Virus record (IMG/VR): IMGVR_UViG_3300033153_015023
Span: 1 to 64,000 of that record
Source of the DNA: a virus
Strand: one strand, 5' to 3'
Length of the DNA: 64,000 nt
Shown here: in pieces, positions 2,870 to 30,928 of the stretch
How positions within the stretch are numbered: position 1 is the first letter of the stretch
Layout of the letters: each line of letters begins with the position of its first letter
The notes under the pieces: generated by a model
The model's input: the letters and a program-made list of their open reading frames with translations, nothing else
What the model was told of the DNA's origin: nothing
Database searches by the model: none
Translations under genes and position numbers: made by a program

Positions 2870-2880
2870 AAAGGGTAATT

Positions 2881-3309
2881 ATGTCCATAATTAATTTTTT
2901 TATTGATGATGACATAATTATATCTATCAATAATCGTTTTAGATATGCCAGACAACCTAGAACCATCTTAGAAAAAATTCCTTTTAAAGAAATCATCTAC
3001 TATCTCAATGACAAAACTGGAAAGAAATTCCGGTATACTAATCCTAAGTCGAAAGAAAAAATCACTAGTAGATGGAATGAAGGGTACAGGTTGGATGATT
3101 TTAAAAAGGTTATTGATGTAAAGGTAGCTGAATGGACAGGTACTAATTACGCTATGTATATCAGACCAGAAACTTTATTCGGATCTAAATTTGAAGGTTA
3201 TGTAAATCAAGAACGGGAAGGGACAAATATCTGTCCTAACCCAGAATGTCAATATTTATTAAATGGGACAGAAATAAATTGCCCCAAATGTCATTGGAGG
3301 ATTCGGTGA
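2881..3309 (+). CDS. Phage replication initiator-like protein (conserved phage C-terminal domain) with Zn ribbon
   Basis: IIYYLNDKTGKKF...YIRPETLFGSKFEGYVNQ; CPNPEC..CPKC. Confidence 0.8.
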   Translation: MSIINFFIDDDIIISINNRFRYARQPRTILEKIPFKEIIYYLNDKTGKKFRYTNPKSKEKITSRWNEGYRLDDFKKVIDVKVAEWTGTNYAMYIRPETLFGSKFEGYVNQEREGTNICPNPECQYLLNGTEINCPKCHWRIR

Positions 3310-4163
3310 AGATAATTAACGATCTTAAAATAGGCAAGGGGTTTATTTTTCGAGTAGGTGGACAGCTTGTTTGTGGTTTATGTAGAAAAGAAATTGAGGT
3401 TAGCCAGAAATGTATATACTGTTCTAATTCTTTTGAGCATGGGATAAAAGATGTAGACCATGCTACTAGAATAACAGATGCCTTTTTTAACCAGTTATTC
3501 CCTAAAGAAGATATTTATGATGAGAATAGTGATTACAGACCTAAAGTATTGCATGTAGGGAAACTTTACGATGTAATAGAATCCTGTGAAAAAGCAAAAC
3601 AGTATGATAAGATATATATGAAAGAGCGACTTCTTTCGGAGGCAAACATTCCAAAAAGATATTGTTTTTTAGGTTGGAAAGATTTCCATTCTAATCTAGA
3701 TCTAACTGGGTTAAAAGATTTGTGCTCGAATAATTCAAATGGGGAAATTATTTATTTGCATGGCGATAATAATACTGGTAAAACTTTATTAATGAGTATC
3801 ATGTTGCAAAGATTTCTTGATAATGAGCATAGTATTTATTTTATTACACCAGAGCAAATTGCTAATTTATACGCAAAACACTGGTATGATTCTACAGATA
3901 AGAGAAGTGATTTAGAAAAAATACGATGTTTAGATGTTGTCGGTGTTGATGATTTATTCGATCCGAAGAAGGTGTTTATAGGGAAGAATGGTGGTCTGAT
4001 TATCCCTTCTGTAGATAGTTTTTTACGCTATCGAGTACATAACAATTTAACTACTATTATTACAACTAATATCCCTCTCTTACAAGTTGCACAAACTGAA
4101 TTCCATCAAACTGGAAAACTTTTAGAAAGAGGCGATAAAAAGTTTCGTATTTTATTAACATAA
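3246..4163 (+). CDS. DnaC/IstB-like AAA+ helicase loader (real start probably GTG 3306)
   Basis: Walker A HGDNNTGKT, Walker B VGVDDL, TIITTN; ANIPKRY motif. Confidence 0.8.
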   Translation: MSIFIKWDRNKLPQMSLEDSVKIINDLKIGKGFIFRVGGQLVCGLCRKEIEVSQKCIYCSNSFEHGIKDVDHATRITDAFFNQLFPKEDIYDENSDYRPKVLHVGKLYDVIESCEKAKQYDKIYMKERLLSEANIPKRYCFLGWKDFHSNLDLTGLKDLCSNNSNGEIIYLHGDNNTGKTLLMSIMLQRFLDNEHSIYFITPEQIANLYAKHWYDSTDKRSDLEKIRCLDVVGVDDLFDPKKVFIGKNGGLIIPSVDSFLRYRVHNNLTTIITTNIPLLQVAQTEFHQTGKLLERGDKKFRILLT

Positions 4164-4177
4164 AGAAGGGAAGATGT

Positions 4178-5608
4178 GTGGATTTCTTTTTAAGTAGTGA
4201 TGAAGACAATGAGAGAATTGTTCTAGAAGGTGCTGTGAGAGTGGAAGAGTATTACCAGGTTTTTAGTAGTACTGTGCCAGCAGATTTCCTTAAGGCAGAA
4301 CACAAATGTATTGCAACTGCTCTAATAGAAATAGAAAAAACATCTTCCCCAGGGTTACTTCTTGCCTTTTGTAAAAAAACTGATTTTGTTGCGCCATCTC
4401 TTGAATACATAAAAAAGTTATTTTTCCCGCCACTACCTTCAATAGAAGACTACAAAAAACATGTTGAGATACTCAAATCTGATTCTAGAAGAAGGGTTAT
4501 TGAGGATAAATTGCTTCCTCAATTAATTGAGCATCTTGCTAAAAAATCAGAGCCTATCGGCAATATTTCTGATATAGCAATATCAATAAAAGATGTTGCT
4601 GACTCAGGCGCTGCTAAAATCTATATTCAGAATACAAAAGAACTGTTGGATTCATATAGCGTGGTAGAAGAAGCGCGAAGAAGCGGCAGTAGTTTTTATA
4701 GCTGTGGATTCAAACAAATAGATGAAGAATTAACAAGGGGGTTTTTTCCATCTGGTGTTACTATTATTGGTGGACGTCCAGGGATGGGTAAAAGTTCTTT
4801 TGTTATCAGTAGTGCAATGAGTCTTTCTTTCAAAAAAATTCCTATTCTGTTATTTTCTTTGGAGATGTCATCTATATCTGTTATGGATAGAATTCTATCG
4901 AGAGAGACCAGGGTACCCCTCTCTCAACTAGTAAAACATTCCCACGAATTACCACCAGCTCAATTACAACAAATAAAGGATGTAAAAAAACGACTTTGGG
5001 ATAACGAATATCTGTATGTGTGCGATAGACCAGGTGTATCATTACGTTTTATCAGGGAACAGATTAAAAGGTTCCAGAATATTCATGGGATCAAATACGC
5101 TATTGTATATATAGATTTGTTTGGAAAGATAAAAGATTTGAGTGAGGCTAATATGGCTCAAAGTTATGAGAAAAATCTGAATTTAGTGCAGGGCATGGCA
5201 AGAGAGTTAGGCGTGCATTTTGTTTTAGCAGCACAGATAAATAGAGCTGCTGAGAAAGGAAAAAGTATTTGGAATTACCGGCCTAAATTGCATGATATAA
5301 AGAATTCCGGTGCATGGGAAGAAGTAGCGGATCTGATACTATTTTTGTTTCGTGGAAAATATTATGATGATACTCTCGAAGAAGATGTTATAGAAATTCA
5401 GATAGCTAAACAGCGGGATGGTGCCATGAATACTGTAAAATATTTTCAATTTGTGGGGGAATATGCGTTAATATTAAATGCAGATGTTGTTCCCGCTGAT
5501 AAGAAGGGTAGGGATAGTGGAAAAGAAGATAGCTCGGATGTATATGAAAGCTCTGTTGAAGAAGTCGAGAGAATTAATTCAGCTCGACACCGAAAGATGG
5601 TTACTTGA
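4178..5608 (+). CDS. dnaB: Replicative DNA helicase
   Basis: GGRPGMGKS, FSLEMS, AQINR, SGAWEEVAD, IAKQRDG. Confidence 0.95.
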   Translation: MDFFLSSDEDNERIVLEGAVRVEEYYQVFSSTVPADFLKAEHKCIATALIEIEKTSSPGLLLAFCKKTDFVAPSLEYIKKLFFPPLPSIEDYKKHVEILKSDSRRRVIEDKLLPQLIEHLAKKSEPIGNISDIAISIKDVADSGAAKIYIQNTKELLDSYSVVEEARRSGSSFYSCGFKQIDEELTRGFFPSGVTIIGGRPGMGKSSFVISSAMSLSFKKIPILLFSLEMSSISVMDRILSRETRVPLSQLVKHSHELPPAQLQQIKDVKKRLWDNEYLYVCDRPGVSLRFIREQIKRFQNIHGIKYAIVYIDLFGKIKDLSEANMAQSYEKNLNLVQGMARELGVHFVLAAQINRAAEKGKSIWNYRPKLHDIKNSGAWEEVADLILFLFRGKYYDDTLEEDVIEIQIAKQRDGAMNTVKYFQFVGEYALILNADVVPADKKGRDSGKEDSSDVYESSVEEVERINSARHRKMVT

Positions 5609-6464
5609 TCTAGGGGCAGAAGAACTTCAGCAGCTTGAGAGGGGTTGGTGGGAATTCCGCTGCCTAAATCCTGATCATAACGACCATCATCCCAGCATGG
5701 GATACAATGAATTTACTGGGGCATGGTCCTGTTTTAGTTGTCTTTCAAAAGGCAGTGGCCCGGTGTTTTTAACCATGTTGGCGCTTGATAAACAATATGA
5801 AGAAGCGGTTGAGTTTGTTCTTGACTATGTGATAGGTAAAGAGGATTGGAAGCCTAGAGAGATCAAAAAGAAGCGTAGGATAAAAGTACCTATAGAAGGG
5901 TTTGTAGAACTTCCAGCAGCAGCAATTAAGTATTTAAAAGATAGAGGAATTCCTATAAAGTTTGCACAAAAAAAGGGTGTTAAATGGTCGAATAGTATGA
6001 GCAGGATTATTATTCCCATAACAGAATATTATTGGACTGCAAGGGCTATTGATGATTCAAAACCGAAGTACCTGCATACTAAAGGTTTTTCAAAAAGTGA
6101 AGTTTTGTACAATTTTGATTCTGTGCATAGGGTTGTTTCTGGTGTAGGTGTTGTCGAAGGTGTGTTTGATGCGTGGAAAGTAGAGCTCGCAGGATTCCCA
6201 TGCGTGGCAACTTTCGGCGCGGGAATATCGAATGGACAATTAAGGCTACTGGATGGATTTGTACGATTAGTAGCCATACCTGATAAGGATCAAGGTGGTG
6301 AATTATTTATTGAGAGAATTTCAAAAGTGAGGAATCCTGAATTATGGATAGCGGAACCACCTGGGAAGGATGTAGGGGCGTGTACTATAGAAGAAGTGAG
6401 GAAGATATGGGAAGAAAAGAGGCTGTTTTGGAAGGTATATTCACATATTTTTGTCAAGAAATAA
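5478..6464 (+). CDS. dnaG: DNA primase, CHC2 Zn finger plus Toprim (start probably ~5538-5544)
   Basis: CLNPDHNDHHPS..CFSC; VVEGVFDA; DKDQGG. Confidence 0.9.
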   Translation: MQMLFPLIRRVGIVEKKIARMYMKALLKKSRELIQLDTERWLLDLGAEELQQLERGWWEFRCLNPDHNDHHPSMGYNEFTGAWSCFSCLSKGSGPVFLTMLALDKQYEEAVEFVLDYVIGKEDWKPREIKKKRRIKVPIEGFVELPAAAIKYLKDRGIPIKFAQKKGVKWSNSMSRIIIPITEYYWTARAIDDSKPKYLHTKGFSKSEVLYNFDSVHRVVSGVGVVEGVFDAWKVELAGFPCVATFGAGISNGQLRLLDGFVRLVAIPDKDQGGELFIERISKVRNPELWIAEPPGKDVGACTIEEVRKIWEEKRLFWKVYSHIFVKK

Positions 6465-6472
6465 AAAAGTTG

Positions 6473-6501
6473 TTGACAATTATTATTGTGGGGTTTATAT
6501 T
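6473..6501 (+). promoter_or_regulatory. Sigma70-type promoter upstream of the repeat array
   Basis: AAAAAAGTTGTTGACA-17 nt-TATATT, same upstream context as the 1037 promoter. Confidence 0.8.
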
Positions 6502-6508
6502 ATAGAGA

Positions 6509-6606
6509 GTATGAGTATTCGACTATTTCAAAGATTTGTATTGCCTCCAAAAATTTGATATCTTTAGTCGGATACTCAGTCAAATTTGCGGGGGCTTTAT
6601 TTTTTA
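6509..6606 (+). promoter_or_regulatory. Structured 5' leader/attenuator, copy 2
   Basis: Stem gcctcc..aaatttga/tcaaattt..gggggc followed by a T-run; 5' tgagtattcgacta is complementary to loop tagtcggatactca. Confidence 0.65.
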
Positions 6607-6621
6607 TAAGGGGGAATTAAA

Positions 6622-6914
6622 GAGCGGGCCAAGAAGAATGAGAAAACCAGTGGTCACGAGCGAGCCAATCCCCGCGAGAAAACCACCAGAGGTGAGCGAG
6701 CCACGGAATATGAGAAAACCATGTTTCACGAGCGAGCCAATGATCAAGAGAAAACCACTCCCCTGGAGCGTGCCAAAGGTGTGGAGTAAACCAGAGTGTT
6801 AGAGCGTGCCACGAATATGGAGAAAACCATAGAAGGGAAGCGAGCCATTGATGTCGAGAAAACCATTGATAAAGAGCGAGTCAAGTGAAAAGAGAAAACC
6901 AGTGGGTGTGAGCG
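6622..6914 (+). ncRNA. TIGR-like dual-repeat guide array (8 units of 36 nt)
   Basis: GAGCG(A/G/T)GCCA-N8-GAGAAAACCA-N8, units starting at 6622, 6658, 6694, 6730, 6766, 6802, 6838, 6874, plus terminal GAGCG at 6910; 16 different spacers. Confidence 0.85.
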
Positions 6915-6972
6915 TTATTATTTATTAAAAGGTTAAATTGATTTTAAAAAAGTTCAATATAAGGAGAAGAAG

Positions 6973-7662
6973 GTGCGACGTATAAAAAAGAAAGTAATCT
7001 GGCAGGTAAAAGCAAATCCAGAAAAAATAAGGCTCTGGAAACAAAATATTTCCAGGGGATTAAAACTTTATTGGATGTCACCAGCAGGCATATTAAGAAA
7101 ACAGGTTATGAGGGAAAGTTTCTCTGGACCTGTTAAAGTAGAGTATCAAAAGAAGATACAAAGTAAGAAACCTTTTGAAGATATTCTGAAGGAATTTGCG
7201 CCATGGAAAGAAGGTTTGATACGTAAGTTCTCTAGTTACCCAGCAGAAGAAATTTCACAGGCAATAGATATTGGCATGTGGAAGGGGTATACAAAGTGTG
7301 TAGATAAAAAGTATCTAACATCTTCTGTAACCAGCTATGGATACTGGTCCCTGCTAGATTTTTTAGAGAGTGAAAGACATCCCGATGGAAAACTTGTTTC
7401 TACACCTACTGCTAATATGGATGTTTTTGAAGATGATGTCATATCTATCGAATCAAAACCTTTATTCTGGGCAGCTGTAAAATTTGTTAGGGATAAACTT
7501 TCAAAACCTGGAAAAGAAACACTAGATCTTCTGATCAAAGGATATAGCCAGCGGGAAATAGCAGAAATAAGGGGTGTTTCACCAGGAAGAATTTCACAAA
7601 TTATTACAAATATTATCCGGCCACGAATAGCAGAAGTTTTATCCTATGCAAGTATTATGTAA
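6973..7662 (+). CDS. Phage sigma70-family RNA polymerase sigma factor with basic N-terminal extension
   Basis: Region 2-like EEISQAIDIGMWKG...YWSLLDFL; region 4 HTH GYSQREIAEIRGVSPGRISQI; AAGGAG SD. Confidence 0.75.
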   Translation: MRRIKKKVIWQVKANPEKIRLWKQNISRGLKLYWMSPAGILRKQVMRESFSGPVKVEYQKKIQSKKPFEDILKEFAPWKEGLIRKFSSYPAEEISQAIDIGMWKGYTKCVDKKYLTSSVTSYGYWSLLDFLESERHPDGKLVSTPTANMDVFEDDVISIESKPLFWAAVKFVRDKLSKPGKETLDLLIKGYSQREIAEIRGVSPGRISQIITNIIRPRIAEVLSYASIM

Positions 7663-22967: not shown

Positions 22968-23566
22968 TAGATGATATTGATAAGCTTGCATACAAGCCTG
23001 CTTTTCCACATCAACTCGCAAAAGATCGTTGTCGAGAGGATAGACGTAAAAGATTGATGCTGAAAAAAATAAATGTGATTGCCGGCAAGTTCCTTCTTTT
23101 TCGAGAAAGAGAGATGTTAGAGATCTATATGTATCACAATCATCGAGTAAGAGATCTTAGGCCGTTTGTCCATTCGAAAACCCGATATTTAGTTTTATCG
23201 AAGATGCATCATATACTATATCTGCTTCAGCAATATCTTAAGTTTTTTTTCGAATACGATTATAAAGAAATCGATCAAGTTGCGAGAGAAGTATTGCTTC
23301 CAAAACAGTATATCTTTCTTTGTGATTATTTACGTTTGCATTCTTATCGTAGATGTAGTTTGTTGTATAGTATTTCTATTCAAGCGGTTTATTGTCGATT
23401 GCGGTATATTAAAGATCGGTTGCAAGGAAAATTATTTGTGGATAAAAAAGATATTGAGTTAAAAAAGGTTCGTAAAAATATAGAACGGGCAAGATATGTC
23501 CTGGAAGTAACAAAGCCTTTGGTAGAATTAATTACAACCTTACAAAGATATAGAGCAAAATTATGA
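22949..23566 (+). CDS. Hypothetical protein, possibly with sigma region 4-like HTH repeats
   Basis: LLPKQY...ISIQAVYCRLRYIKDRL pattern. Confidence 0.5.
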   Translation: MRGIILVDDIDKLAYKPAFPHQLAKDRCREDRRKRLMLKKINVIAGKFLLFREREMLEIYMYHNHRVRDLRPFVHSKTRYLVLSKMHHILYLLQQYLKFFFEYDYKEIDQVAREVLLPKQYIFLCDYLRLHSYRRCSLLYSISIQAVYCRLRYIKDRLQGKLFVDKKDIELKKVRKNIERARYVLEVTKPLVELITTLQRYRAKL

Positions 23567-23922
23567 CCATTGTATTTGATTGGAGTGTGTTGTGTATTCC
23601 TTCAAAGAAAACACGCTTCGGGTATCCTAGAAGATTCTCACGCAGCCTTGTAAAGTGGTTGATAAGACATGGTTGGAGAGTTTGTGTTATAAGCCCATTC
23701 TGGTTAGAAAGATTTCCTACAATGGAATTAGCAAGGCATTTTTTACGATTGAAATTTCCTTTTGTTGAAATAGTTCGTTTTAAATCACGTCCTGAATTTT
23801 CTATAATTGTTTCTTTTGATCAATTTATACAGAAAAAAAGATTTTTCTTTCTAAGATTATTTTTAAATTTACGTAAACTAACTAAGAGAAAACATCGTAT
23901 TACTGTATGGAAGAAAAGATGA
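23563..23922 (+). CDS. Hypothetical basic protein
   Basis: ATGA overlap with the upstream gene. Confidence 0.5.
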   Translation: MTIVFDWSVLCIPSKKTRFGYPRRFSRSLVKWLIRHGWRVCVISPFWLERFPTMELARHFLRLKFPFVEIVRFKSRPEFSIIVSFDQFIQKKRFFFLRLFLNLRKLTKRKHRITVWKKR

Positions 23923-24070
23923 AAAAAGAAAATGAAGTTGAGAAAGAAACTTATGCTCCATTTTGGGCTTTTGGTCATAAATTTATTGGGTATTATTATC
24001 AAACAAAAGAAGGAAAACAATTTACTTGTATTGCTGCGGATATAACTATAGCAAGATGGAAAAGAGATAA

Positions 24071-28767: not shown

Positions 28768-29027
28768 TTCCTAATATGGTTCATCCTCTAAGTAAGCATT
28801 GGGATCAGCCTAGTAGAAAAGATATTGCAATAGACGATATGTATGCACTTATGGGCAGGGAATCTTTTCAACAATTAAAAAGATATTCTACGTCAATCCC
28901 TACTGGAATTTATGAAGGTAAGATGTGGAAAGCAAGAATTGGAGGCAAATGGTTTTTGAGATGGTTTGGAATTGAAAATAAAGAGGGGTTATTGCCACTT
29001 CTGATTAGAGAGATAATTGTAGTGTAG
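28734..29027 (+). CDS. Hypothetical phage protein (start probably 28764)
   Basis: YSTSIPTGIYEGKMWKA motif. Confidence 0.65.
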   Translation: MVRTYSGAVEMIPNMVHPLSKHWDQPSRKDIAIDDMYALMGRESFQQLKRYSTSIPTGIYEGKMWKARIGGKWFLRWFGIENKEGLLPLLIREIIVV

Positions 29028-29045
29028 AGCGAAGGAGCGCGAAAA

Positions 29046-29252
29046 ATGAGTGATAGTATGAGTGAAGAAATTAAAATCTTCGATCAACTAAAGAATTTGG
29101 CTGATGGTATTATTGATAATATTAGTAATATATCAGATGAAGAGATCATCGAAGAAGTAAGAGAAGAGCATAATGATCCCGAATTCGAAGCTAATATCAT
29201 GCGAGATATCATTAAAGAAGTAAAAGGTAAGATGGAGAGAGGGGATGAGTGA
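29046..29252 (+). CDS. Hypothetical acidic protein
   Basis: AAGGAG SD. Confidence 0.55.
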   Translation: MSDSMSEEIKIFDQLKNLADGIIDNISNISDEEIIEEVREEHNDPEFEANIMRDIIKEVKGKMERGDE

Positions 29253-29521
29253 AATACAATTAATAAATAAACTAGATGTGCCTCTCTATATAGATGTAAT
29301 ATGTTATGGTTGTAAAAGACGTGTAGCATTATCAAATACACATGAATTTAAATTGATACTATTATAGTGGCAGTTAGGAACTGGAGTATTGCTAGACGTT
29401 TAGAAATATTAGAACACAAAACAGGTATATCAAGGAGAAAACTGAAAAAGTTTGTATGGTAAGGATTTTTACTGATTGAGGAAGAGTGTGTAAAAATAAA
29501 TCAATTTAAAACATAACTTGG

Positions 29522-30928
29522 TTGGAAATAATGAGAAGGATAAAATTAGATTATAGGGATAAAATACTTTGTGGTGATACATTGGAGGTTTTAAAAAGTA
29601 TGGAGGCTGGTATTGTAGATATGTGTATAACATCCCCGCCATACTGGGGCTTAAGAGATTACGGCACGGCACAATGGGAAGGTGGGGATAATGGATGTGA
29701 TCATATAAAAGAATATGCTAGAGCAAACGAATCATTGAAAAATAGTACCCTAGGGCCTTTAAAAAAAGGGCTAGGGGCTAACAATGCGGCTCATATTGCA
29801 CAAGAAAAACAATATGGAAAAACTTGCCTTAAATGCGGCGCTATCCGAATAGATAAGCAACTCGGCCTTGAACCGACCATCGATGAATATATCAGCAACA
29901 TGACGGCAGTATTCGAGGAAGTGAAAAGGGTGCTGAAGGATACGGGAGTACTTTTTTTAAATATGGGGGATGCTTATGCGAGTGCCAATAGTTGTCGTAT
30001 CATTGATGGTAATGGGCGAGCAGGTTTATCATATAATAGCACACCACCCCATAAACGTTCTAATAGATTAGCGAGTAATATTAAAGAAAAAGACCTGATC
30101 GGCCAACCCTGGCGCCTTGCTTTCGCTCTCCAGGCCGACGGATGGTATCTTCGCAGCGATATTATCTGGCATAAGCCCAATCCCATGCCTGAGAGCGTAA
30201 CTGATAGACCAACCAAGAGTCATGAGTATCTATTCCTGCTCACTAAGAAAAGCAAGTATTTTTATGATGCGGATGCGGTGAGGGAAGAGCATAAGGAAAT
30301 CAGCATAAAGAGAAGTCATAGAAAATGGGATGGTAATAGGGATATAGGGTCCATTAAGCCTTCTTGGTCAACCTTGAAGGCAGAGAATATGTGTCATCCC
30401 GCTGGCCGCAACAAGCGCACTGTCTGGACTATAGCAACACAAGCATATTCTGGAGCCCACTTCGCAACTTTTCCCGAAAAACTTGTAGAACCATGTATCC
30501 GTGCTGGAACCAGTGAGAAGGGTAACTGTGCTGAATGCGGCAAGCCGTGGGTGCGGATGGTGGAGAAAACAGATCCTCCCCGGCGTGATGTGAATAGTAC
30601 ATATCCCGGCAGGCAAACCCTTGCGACTCAAAAATATAAACATGATGAATCGGGTCCCGTAAAGCATACCATCGGCTGGAAACCTTCCTGCTCCTGCGGT
30701 GCGGATACCGTGCGGCCTATTGTACTTGACCCATTCATGGGCAGCGGGACCGTCGGCCTAGTAGCGAAAAAGCTGAATCGGGATTATGTTGGCATAGAAT
30801 TAAATCCAGAATATATTAAAATGGCGGAAAAACGGATCCGGGGGCAGATGGGATTATTTGTAAAAAATAATGAGCCTTCAGTTAAGATAAAAAAGAAAAG
30901 AAGAATAAGAATGAGTATAGGAATATGA
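29522..30928 (+). CDS. DNA methyltransferase (N4-C/N6-A, beta class) with Cys-rich inserts (start probably 29531)
   Basis: TSPPYWGLRDY, IIWHKPNPMPES, HFATFP, LDPFMGSGT. Confidence 0.92.
   Translation: MEIMRRIKLDYRDKILCGDTLEVLKSMEAGIVDMCITSPPYWGLRDYGTAQWEGGDNGCDHIKEYARANESLKNSTLGPLKKGLGANNAAHIAQEKQYGKTCLKCGAIRIDKQLGLEPTIDEYISNMTAVFEEVKRVLKDTGVLFLNMGDAYASANSCRIIDGNGRAGLSYNSTPPHKRSNRLASNIKEKDLIGQPWRLAFALQADGWYLRSDIIWHKPNPMPESVTDRPTKSHEYLFLLTKKSKYFYDADAVREEHKEISIKRSHRKWDGNRDIGSIKPSWSTLKAENMCHPAGRNKRTVWTIATQAYSGAHFATFPEKLVEPCIRAGTSEKGNCAECGKPWVRMVEKTDPPRRDVNSTYPGRQTLATQKYKHDESGPVKHTIGWKPSCSCGADTVRPIVLDPFMGSGTVGLVAKKLNRDYVGIELNPEYIKMAEKRIRGQMGLFVKNNEPSVKIKKKRRIRMSIGI

Follow-up and report, generated by a model that had tools for sequence, protein, structure and literature searches.

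A dual-repeat TIGR array in a complete phage genome that encodes no Tas protein

The array at positions 6622 to 6914 of the DNA analysed here is, with certainty or nearly so, a genuine dual-repeat TIGR array, and its repeats belong to the class of the TasA/TasH-like clade (10-nt repeats, 8+8-nt spacers). It is equally certain or nearly so that the complete phage genome in which this array is found encodes no Tas, and that the array is an accessory element, which is dispensable. The reading that is preferred here, to which a probability of roughly 0.5 is assigned, is that of an orphan array, which would be served in trans by a Tas of the matching clade from another genome in the same cell.

The stretch that was analysed, hereafter called the window, has a length of 64,000 nt and corresponds to bases 1-64000 of a virus record that is 80,025 bp long and has a GC content of 36%. 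The record is complete, as judged by 114-bp direct terminal repeats (DTR) and a CheckV estimate of 100%, and 133 ORFs were called in it, nearly all of which are located on the + strand. No relative at the DNA level was found among isolated phages, the nearest of which share at most 31% PolA identity. The array sits in the replication/early region of the genome: genes for a DnaC-like ATPase, a DnaB helicase and a primase (5478-6464) lie upstream of it, and a gene for a 229-aa protein (6973-7662), several small ORFs and the gene for a family-A DNA polymerase follow downstream. The features on which the analysis is based are the following:

1028-1171, + strand: twin promoter and leader of the ParB-like operon; hairpin GC-rich and terminator-like
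1172-2445, + strand: ParB-like gene (1172-1951) and 165-aa ORF (1948-2445); PHROG ParB-like families, weak Pfam ParB_N
6464-6501, + strand: array promoter, A-tract and GTTGTTGACAA; 11/12 match, -35 box TTGACA at 6473-6478, 17-nt spacer, -10 box TATATT at 6496-6501
6511-6578, + strand: leader hairpin with a 14-bp outer stem, tgagtattcgacta / tagtcggatactca; fold -24.5 kcal/mol, z -3.3
6592-6614, + strand: conserved leader end GGGCTTTATTTTTTATA and SD-like AAGGGGG (6608-6614), with no start codon after it
6622-6909, + strand: dual-repeat array, eight units in an exact 36-nt register; the repeat pair occurs in 77 other loci, mostly beside Tas
6910-6914, + strand: terminal 3'-truncated edge repeat GAGCG; the same ending is found in Tas-linked arrays and is described in PMC12045711
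6915-6972, + strand: AT-rich spacer, which ends in the RBS AAGGAG of the sigma gene; fold -8.5 kcal/mol, z +0.7
6973-7662, + strand: phage sigma-factor gene, 229 aa; PHROG 1740 over aa 57-216, Pfam HTH and Sigma70_r4 at the C-terminus

TIGR arrays have been defined as two alternating repeats of 8-12 nt, which are separated by spacers of 8-12 nt and form a unit of around 36 nt that is repeated 5-15 times (PMC12045711). The repeats start with a box D and end with the box C CCA, both of which covary between edge and loop repeat; furthermore, the interior of the loop repeat is A-rich and that of the edge repeat contains an extra pair (PMC12045711). The window array agrees with this definition in unit length and repeat length. 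It consists of eight consecutive units of exactly 36 nt each (6622-6909), in every one of which an edge repeat and a loop repeat of 10 nt are each followed by an 8-nt spacer, and it ends with GAGCG at 6910-6914. The edge repeats are GAGCGGGCCA (one copy), GAGCGAGCCA (three copies), GAGCGTGCCA (two copies), AAGCGAGCCA and GAGCGAGTCA (one copy each), with the consensus GAGCGAGCCA and a variable position 6 (A, G or T); the loop repeats are GAGAAAACCA (seven copies) and GAGTAAACCA (one copy). The first-pass annotation, which was made from the DNA letters, had described the eight 36-nt units, the repeat variants, the 16 eight-nt spacers and the terminal GAGCG, all of which are present as listed there. 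Box D, GAG, opens 15 of the 16 repeats and box C, CCA, closes 15 of the 16, the two changes being AAG in unit 7 and TCA in unit 8. The boxes covary in both repeats, with the layout GAG-AAAA-CCA in the A-rich loop repeat and GAG-CGAG-CCA in the edge repeat, which has a GC core, and box D is GAG here as opposed to the UG of TasR. Published arrays typically have truncated edge repeats and are followed by a terminator (PMC12045711). The window array has the 3' truncated GAGCG, whereas its first (5') edge repeat is of full length and no terminator was detected at its end. Since 36-nt tigRNAs are cut in the middle of the edge repeat (PMC12045711), the predicted products of the array would be 6627-6662, 6663-6698 and onward to 6879-6914.

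The periodicity of the array is unique in its genome. Over 144 nt, the self-identity at a lag of 36 nt reaches 0.65 in the array, while the genome averages 0.295 (sd 0.045) and peaks at 0.44 outside the array, which places the array around 8 sd above background, and no second array of 18-nt-spaced GAG....CCA motifs was found elsewhere in the 80 kb. A search of the window against Rfam gave no match. The spacers have a GC content of 44.5% versus 36% for the genome, around 2 sd above expectation (6622-6909), which hints, at most, at a foreign origin or at foreign targets.

The assignment to the TIGR family is based on loci in which the same repeats accompany Tas proteins. The exact pattern GAGCGAGCCA-N8-GAGAAAACCA is present in IMG/VR (52 contigs) and in prokaryotic metagenome-assembled genomes (MAGs; 25 contigs). 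The MAG contigs with the identical repeat pair (L061-L085) come from very different phyla, archaea among them, with assignments to Dehalococcoidia, Spirochaetes, Patescibacteria, Omnitrophota, Halobacteriota, Aenigmatarchaeota and other groups. Accordingly, both the repeats and the Tas clade have a very broad distribution, for which mobile elements are the probable vehicle. Clustering of the ORFs near the 52 viral arrays by BLAST revealed one dominant family of around 235-325 aa, which is found in 37 loci. A Tas HMM was built from these 37 array-linked proteins and run over six frames; it matched 38 of the 52 viral array loci, and 15 of the 17 loci with at least 2 kb on both flanks of the array. 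The identity of the family was established with the profile A1, built from 24 of its members, which finds the solved structures of TasH (21kl and others) with an E-value of 6e-52 and of TasR (9mty) with 5e-46, the next-best matches being the IS621 and IS110 transposases. Pfam gives a weak Transposase_20 signal alone for the family, as expected for Tas. A second cluster of around 228 aa, which is encoded just upstream of tas in nine loci, has a ParB-like DGxHR motif and probably corresponds to the published TasParB; it was not recognised by Pfam. The repeats of the window array are thus common to Tas-adjacent arrays, and the Tas-linked arrays share its truncated GAGCG end and show a repeat variability equal to its own. 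In the phage TasH system the guide comprises 16 nt, and repeats of 10 nt are found in tasParB-tasA loci (PMC12045711). The call of a TIGR-type array in the first-pass annotation is borne out, as the identical repeat pair adjoins Tas proteins with matches to TasH and TasR of the PDB in dozens of loci.

A complete TIGR-Tas system has a Nop-domain Tas in the same locus or genome, and such a protein is lacking in the window phage. The Pfam families Nop and Transposase_20 have no match in the six frames of the whole 80,025-bp genome. The Tas HMM of 37 members, run with all filters off against the stop-to-stop six-frame pieces of at least 30 aa from this genome, reached a best E-value of 0.5, and no tas fragment was found among these pieces. 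Likewise, the profile A1 does not match the 80,025-bp genome, whereas the same profile does detect tas in two other phage genomes with arrays of this type (G003 and G004, see below). When all 133 ORFs of at least 50 aa were compared to the Tas alignment with hhalign, the maximum probability was 4.6%, and the sequence that gave it was the translated array itself. The array-linked Tas clade is well conserved, with profile E-values mostly between 1e-59 and 1e-105. Because the boxes covary with Tas and the repeats of the window array are identical to those of this well-conserved clade, a cognate Tas would not have escaped the searches. The domain and profile searches over the full record, which had been proposed as a check, therefore returned no Nop, no Transposase_20 and no Tas match, and the earlier statement that no Tas gene is present in the window extends to the entire 80,025-bp genome.

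The window phage is not the only phage with an array of this class that lacks Tas or holds it elsewhere. The 89-kb genome G001, which is 100% complete, has an array and no Tas; this array (at around 21030-21165 of contig C1, also recovered as locus L005) consists of four units with perfect repeats. At the corresponding site, the locus L022 carries a 2.46-kb block with the order array-tas-array-parB-like-array (2879-5339) where L005 has a single array, and the flanks of the two loci are 96% and 93% identical, with 0 spacers in common. L005 and L022 constitute a natural presence/absence polymorphism of tas with complete spacer turnover. The TIGR inserts of both loci are bracketed by a direct duplication (around 60 nt) of the downstream gene's promoter and RBS (L022:3040-3122 and 5467-5560; L005, reverse complement, 4240-4324 and 4469-4560), and these duplications may be the footprint of the insertion of an array or cassette. 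An array without Tas is also present in G005 (63 kb, DTR, rated 75% complete). In G003, which is rated complete, the array at C1:1025-1196 lies 27 kb from tas at 28978-29766; the tas match contains one in-frame TGA. In G004, which is also rated complete, the array at C1:82614-83651 lies 59 kb from tas at 23118-23927. Both of these genomes also carry arrays adjacent to their only tas gene. It is plausible that guides act at a distance from tas, and arrays without Tas can look maintained, as the perfect repeats and the distinct spacers of the G001 array illustrate.

Comparison with relatives of the window phage revealed that the array is not part of the conserved gene order. The 86.8-kb DTR phage G006, which is complete, shares 47 collinear homologous ORFs with the window phage, including DnaB (52% identity) and PolA (49% identity). 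In G006, the primase gene is followed by around 100 nt and then by the sigma gene, with no array in between, and no array, Tas, ParB-like gene or homologue of the ORF at 1948-2445 was found in the whole G006 genome. A closer relative is the metagenomic locus L087, whose primase is 80% and whose sigma factor is around 61% identical to those of the window phage. There, the stop codon of the primase gene is followed by around 90 nt and then by the sigma gene, and this locus lacks the hairpin leader, the array and the first ~65 codons of the sigma gene.

The first-pass annotation had ascribed a TTGACA promoter to the array, and a match to this description is indeed present: TTGACA-17-TATATT at 6473-6501 agrees with the consensus at 11 of 12 positions, as a sequence match. 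The leader hairpin at 6511-6578, which is absent in L087, folds better than all shuffled versions (0/200 shuffles fold as well), and it is followed by GGGCTTTATTTTTTATAAGGGGG. Between the array and the sigma gene (6915-6972), neither a promoter nor a terminator was detected on the + strand, and hence the array most likely makes up the 5' portion of the sigma transcript; it probably lies in the 5' leader of the sigma gene and is co-transcribed with it. The 16-mer AAAAAGTTGTTGACAA around the -35 box occurs in the 80 kb only at the array promoter and at 1028, and the 17-mer GGGCTTTATTTTTTATA occurs only at 1151 and 6592. At 1151, the 17-mer precedes AGGAGG and the ATG of the ParB-like gene. The SD-like GGGGG in front of the array had been taken to suggest the loss of a gene, as no start codon follows. 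The start codon is indeed missing; however, this does not prove gene loss, because the twin copy uses the same 17-mer ahead of the RBS of the ParB-like gene, and a Shine-Dalgarno-like sequence without a start codon is thus the normal end of such a leader. The AAGGGGG at 6608-6614 marks a junction and does not prove that an ORF was lost.

The likeness of the two leaders comprises the A-tract/GTTGTTGACAA promoter, an AGTATGA start region and the leader end GGGCTTTATTTTTTATA, a combination that is found only at 1028-1171 and 6464-6614 in the 80 kb. The hairpins differ between the twin leaders, being GC-rich and terminator-like in front of the ParB-like gene and formed by a 14-bp AU-rich stem in front of the array. 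The modules downstream of both leaders are absent from G006. In addition, TATAAGG(G/A)G is present on both sides of the window array (6605-6614 and 6958-6968), which, like the duplications around the inserts of L022 and L005, may be a trace of insertion.

The neighbouring genes were tested as effectors. The 229-aa product of the gene downstream of the array was considered as a hidden Tas and rejected: its HH probability against Tas is 0.4%, and its structural model, PHROG and Pfam all assign it to the sigma factors. The AF2 model is weak (pLDDT 61), and its top PDB matches are all sigma factors; furthermore, sigma homologues sit directly after the primase in the relatives without an array. The protein has a 65-aa N-terminal extension (6973-7167), which is rich in K/R and W and is kept in the homologues P0017 and P0018, which are 93% and 62% identical to the window sigma factor. 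This conservation indicates that the extension is real coding sequence and that L087 may be a deletion derivative. It is absent from L087 (P0019) and G006, both of which also lack the array. Neither is the 165-aa protein (1948-2445) a Tas, given an HH probability of 0.2% and a model without a Nop-like match. Its AF2 model (pLDDT 78) gives weak matches to winged-helix (wHTH) regulators. The protein belongs to a small uncharacterised family of 14 remote homologues of around 150 aa without a Pfam or PHROG family, in which R13, P30, Y69, R133, N138 and P153 are invariant. Its ORF overlaps the ParB-like ORF (1172-1951) by 4 nt, and the two are translationally coupled. The ParB-like protein was rejected as a specific relative of TasParB, as the likeness is limited to the DGxxR motif (probability 0.8%). 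The locus does not have the form of a tasParB-tasA locus either: the ParB-like ORF lies 4.7 kb from the array and is followed by the gene of the 165-aa protein instead of a tasA partner. None of the three proteins (ParB-like, 165-aa and sigma) is present in the 52 viral array loci.

As 16 nt are too short for database-wide searches, the search for targets was kept to small sets. For each spacer pair, sites with the geometries rcA+B and B+rcA were sought, and A+B and B+A served as controls. The eight spacer pairs have no site with up to two mismatches in the 80-kb genome of the phage itself in either geometry and none with up to one mismatch in 701 kb of related loci. In G006, there is one site with two mismatches, which is equalled by one control hit. 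In the search for bipartite targets that the first-pass annotation had proposed, no enrichment over the controls was observed in the phage's own genome, G006 and the 701 kb of related loci. Conversely, none of 604 foreign spacer pairs matches the 80,025-bp phage exactly, no spacer pair of the window array is common to other arrays, and the genome of the phage itself shows no depletion of the spacer 8-mers.

Maturation of tigRNAs requires Tas (PMC12045711; PMC13421893). Since the phage encodes none, the guides would act only together with a Tas from another genome. According to the preferred reading, the strong sigma-70-type promoter would drive the array as the 5' part of the sigma-factor transcript, and the eight guides would be cut out and used only in infected cells that contain a Tas of the matching clade. 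This Tas might be supplied by the host chromosome, a prophage or a co-infecting phage. In this way, the phage would borrow a foreign Tas and aim it at sites of its own choice, either in the competition among mobile elements or for the manipulation of the host. In its more detailed form, namely that the phage expresses the array early and uses the Tas of the host, of a prophage or of a co-infecting relative, which would be re-aimed at rivals or host genes or else swamped as by a decoy, the proposal is tentative and stands at a little under even odds. The finding that the degeneracy of the window repeats does not exceed that of Tas-linked arrays argues for use in trans; however, the lack of detected targets, the two box changes, the full-length 5' edge repeat, the lack of a terminator and the absence of the array from L087 argue against it. 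If the array does lie in the leader of the sigma mRNA, cutting by Tas would couple the expression of the sigma factor to the presence of a foreign Tas.

The main competing account is that the array is a relic of a tas (or tas-parB) cassette, which recombination between flanking arrays, for instance, might have removed. The array would then still be transcribed owing to its position between a promoter and the sigma gene, and would be a long 5' UTR without guide function. Such an event is suggested by the L022 block and the single array of L005 with their 93-96% identical flanks, which document the gain or loss of tas between arrays, and the two box mutations, the missing terminator and the lack of detected targets of the window array, together with the loss or lack of the whole stretch in L087, are consistent with decay. 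However, the exact 36-nt register is kept over eight units, GAG and CCA are each intact in 15 of 16 repeats, the degeneracy does not go beyond what Tas-linked arrays show, L005 is an orphan array whose repeats are perfect and whose spacers are its own, and no tas fragment is left in the six frames of the genome, so that this history appears unlikely, though not strongly so. Less probable still is that the array serves as a decoy or anti-TIGR element, which would be over-expressed early, load or titrate the Tas of the host or a prophage and thereby blunt TIGR-Tas interference. By analogy, RNA anti-CRISPRs built from repeat mimics have reportedly been described by Camara-Wilpert et al. in 2023. 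The strong promoter match, the identity of the repeats to a widespread consensus, that of a Tas clade which occurs in many phyla, and a phage that has no Tas and no detected targets would fit this role, yet a decoy has no need of eight different spacer pairs, and a TIGR-Tas defence against the window phage is an assumption.

The first-pass annotation had named three options, namely use in trans with a distant Tas gene, an orphan state and a different effector, and the first two of these remain. The third, a phage-encoded effector without a Nop domain, is disfavoured by the neighbouring genes, which encode a sigma factor and a 165-aa protein that resembles winged-helix proteins weakly and is not Nop-like. 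In its specific form, with the ParB-like and 165-aa pair or the sigma factor with its 65-aa extension as the effector, this option is very improbable. It draws on the promoter and leader motifs, which are unique to the array and the ParB-like operon in the 80 kb, on the joint absence of the array and the ParB-like module from G006, on the published tasParB-tasA operons, whose arrays have 10-nt repeats, and on the sigma extension, which P0017 and P0018 keep, whereas L087 and G006 lack both it and the array. Against these points stands the fact that identical repeats are accompanied by canonical Tas elsewhere; moreover, the candidate proteins are found in none of the 52 viral array loci, the 165-aa and sigma proteins have no similarity to Tas, with models that indicate a wHTH protein weakly and a sigma factor, and the likeness of the ParB-like protein to the putative TasParB cluster is confined to the DGxxR motif. 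Finally, that the sequence is no guide array at all and reflects a coding tandem repeat or chance periodicity has a probability close to nil. An 88-aa ORF (6536-6802) keeps frame +1 open over most of the array, but stops are present in all six frames across the array and the spacers are mutually unrelated while the repeats are kept at the nucleotide level, so that the array is not a coding repeat. Chance periodicity is contradicted by the distance from background and by the occurrence of the same repeats beside Tas genes elsewhere.

Among known systems, the closest are the TIGR-Tas arrays (Faure et al. 2025, PMC12045711), and in particular the 16-nt-guide type of the TasH of Salicola phage CGphi29 and the tasParB-tasA loci with 10-nt repeats. 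The window array shares with them the 36-nt unit, the alternation of edge and loop repeats, the covarying GAG/CCA boxes, the A-rich loop, the 8+8-nt spacers, the 3' truncated edge repeat, the phage setting and, with many Tas-linked arrays, the repeat sequence itself. It differs from them in that its phage lacks Tas genome-wide, that its first edge repeat is complete and no terminator follows, and that it has a promoter of its own and a structured leader and probably lies within the 5' leader of a sigma gene. The Tas-remote ('satellite') arrays of G003 and G004 resemble it in standing alone and far from tas, which implies that guides and Tas meet in trans; however, those genomes still encode one Tas, whereas the window phage encodes none.

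Outside the TIGR family, virus-borne or orphan mini-CRISPR arrays without cas genes have reportedly been described by Medvedeva et al. in 2019 and in a review by Faure et al. of the same year. Like the window array, these are guide arrays without effector genes, and they are thought to use a resident effector in conflicts between viruses; in the preferred reading, the window array would be their counterpart in the TIGR family. In contrast to them, the window array belongs to another guide chemistry and another protein family, and the spacers of mini-CRISPR arrays match competing viruses, whereas no match was found for the window spacers.

Published TIGR catalogues were built outward from tas genes, and arrays without a nearby Tas are therefore invisible to them; a description of orphan TIGR arrays was not found in the literature searched. 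In itself, the array described here is an unremarkable representative of a family that was published in 2025. New with respect to the literature searched are the Tas-less state in complete phages and the presence or absence of tas between phages with near-identical flanks. The window array combined with a Tas of the matching clade in trans offers a simple experimental handle. With regard to the biology of the family, guides and protein may be exchangeable between genomes that meet in one cell, close relatives may be polymorphic for the gain or loss of tas genes, and the natural role of TIGR-Tas systems may lie in conflicts among co-infecting phages.
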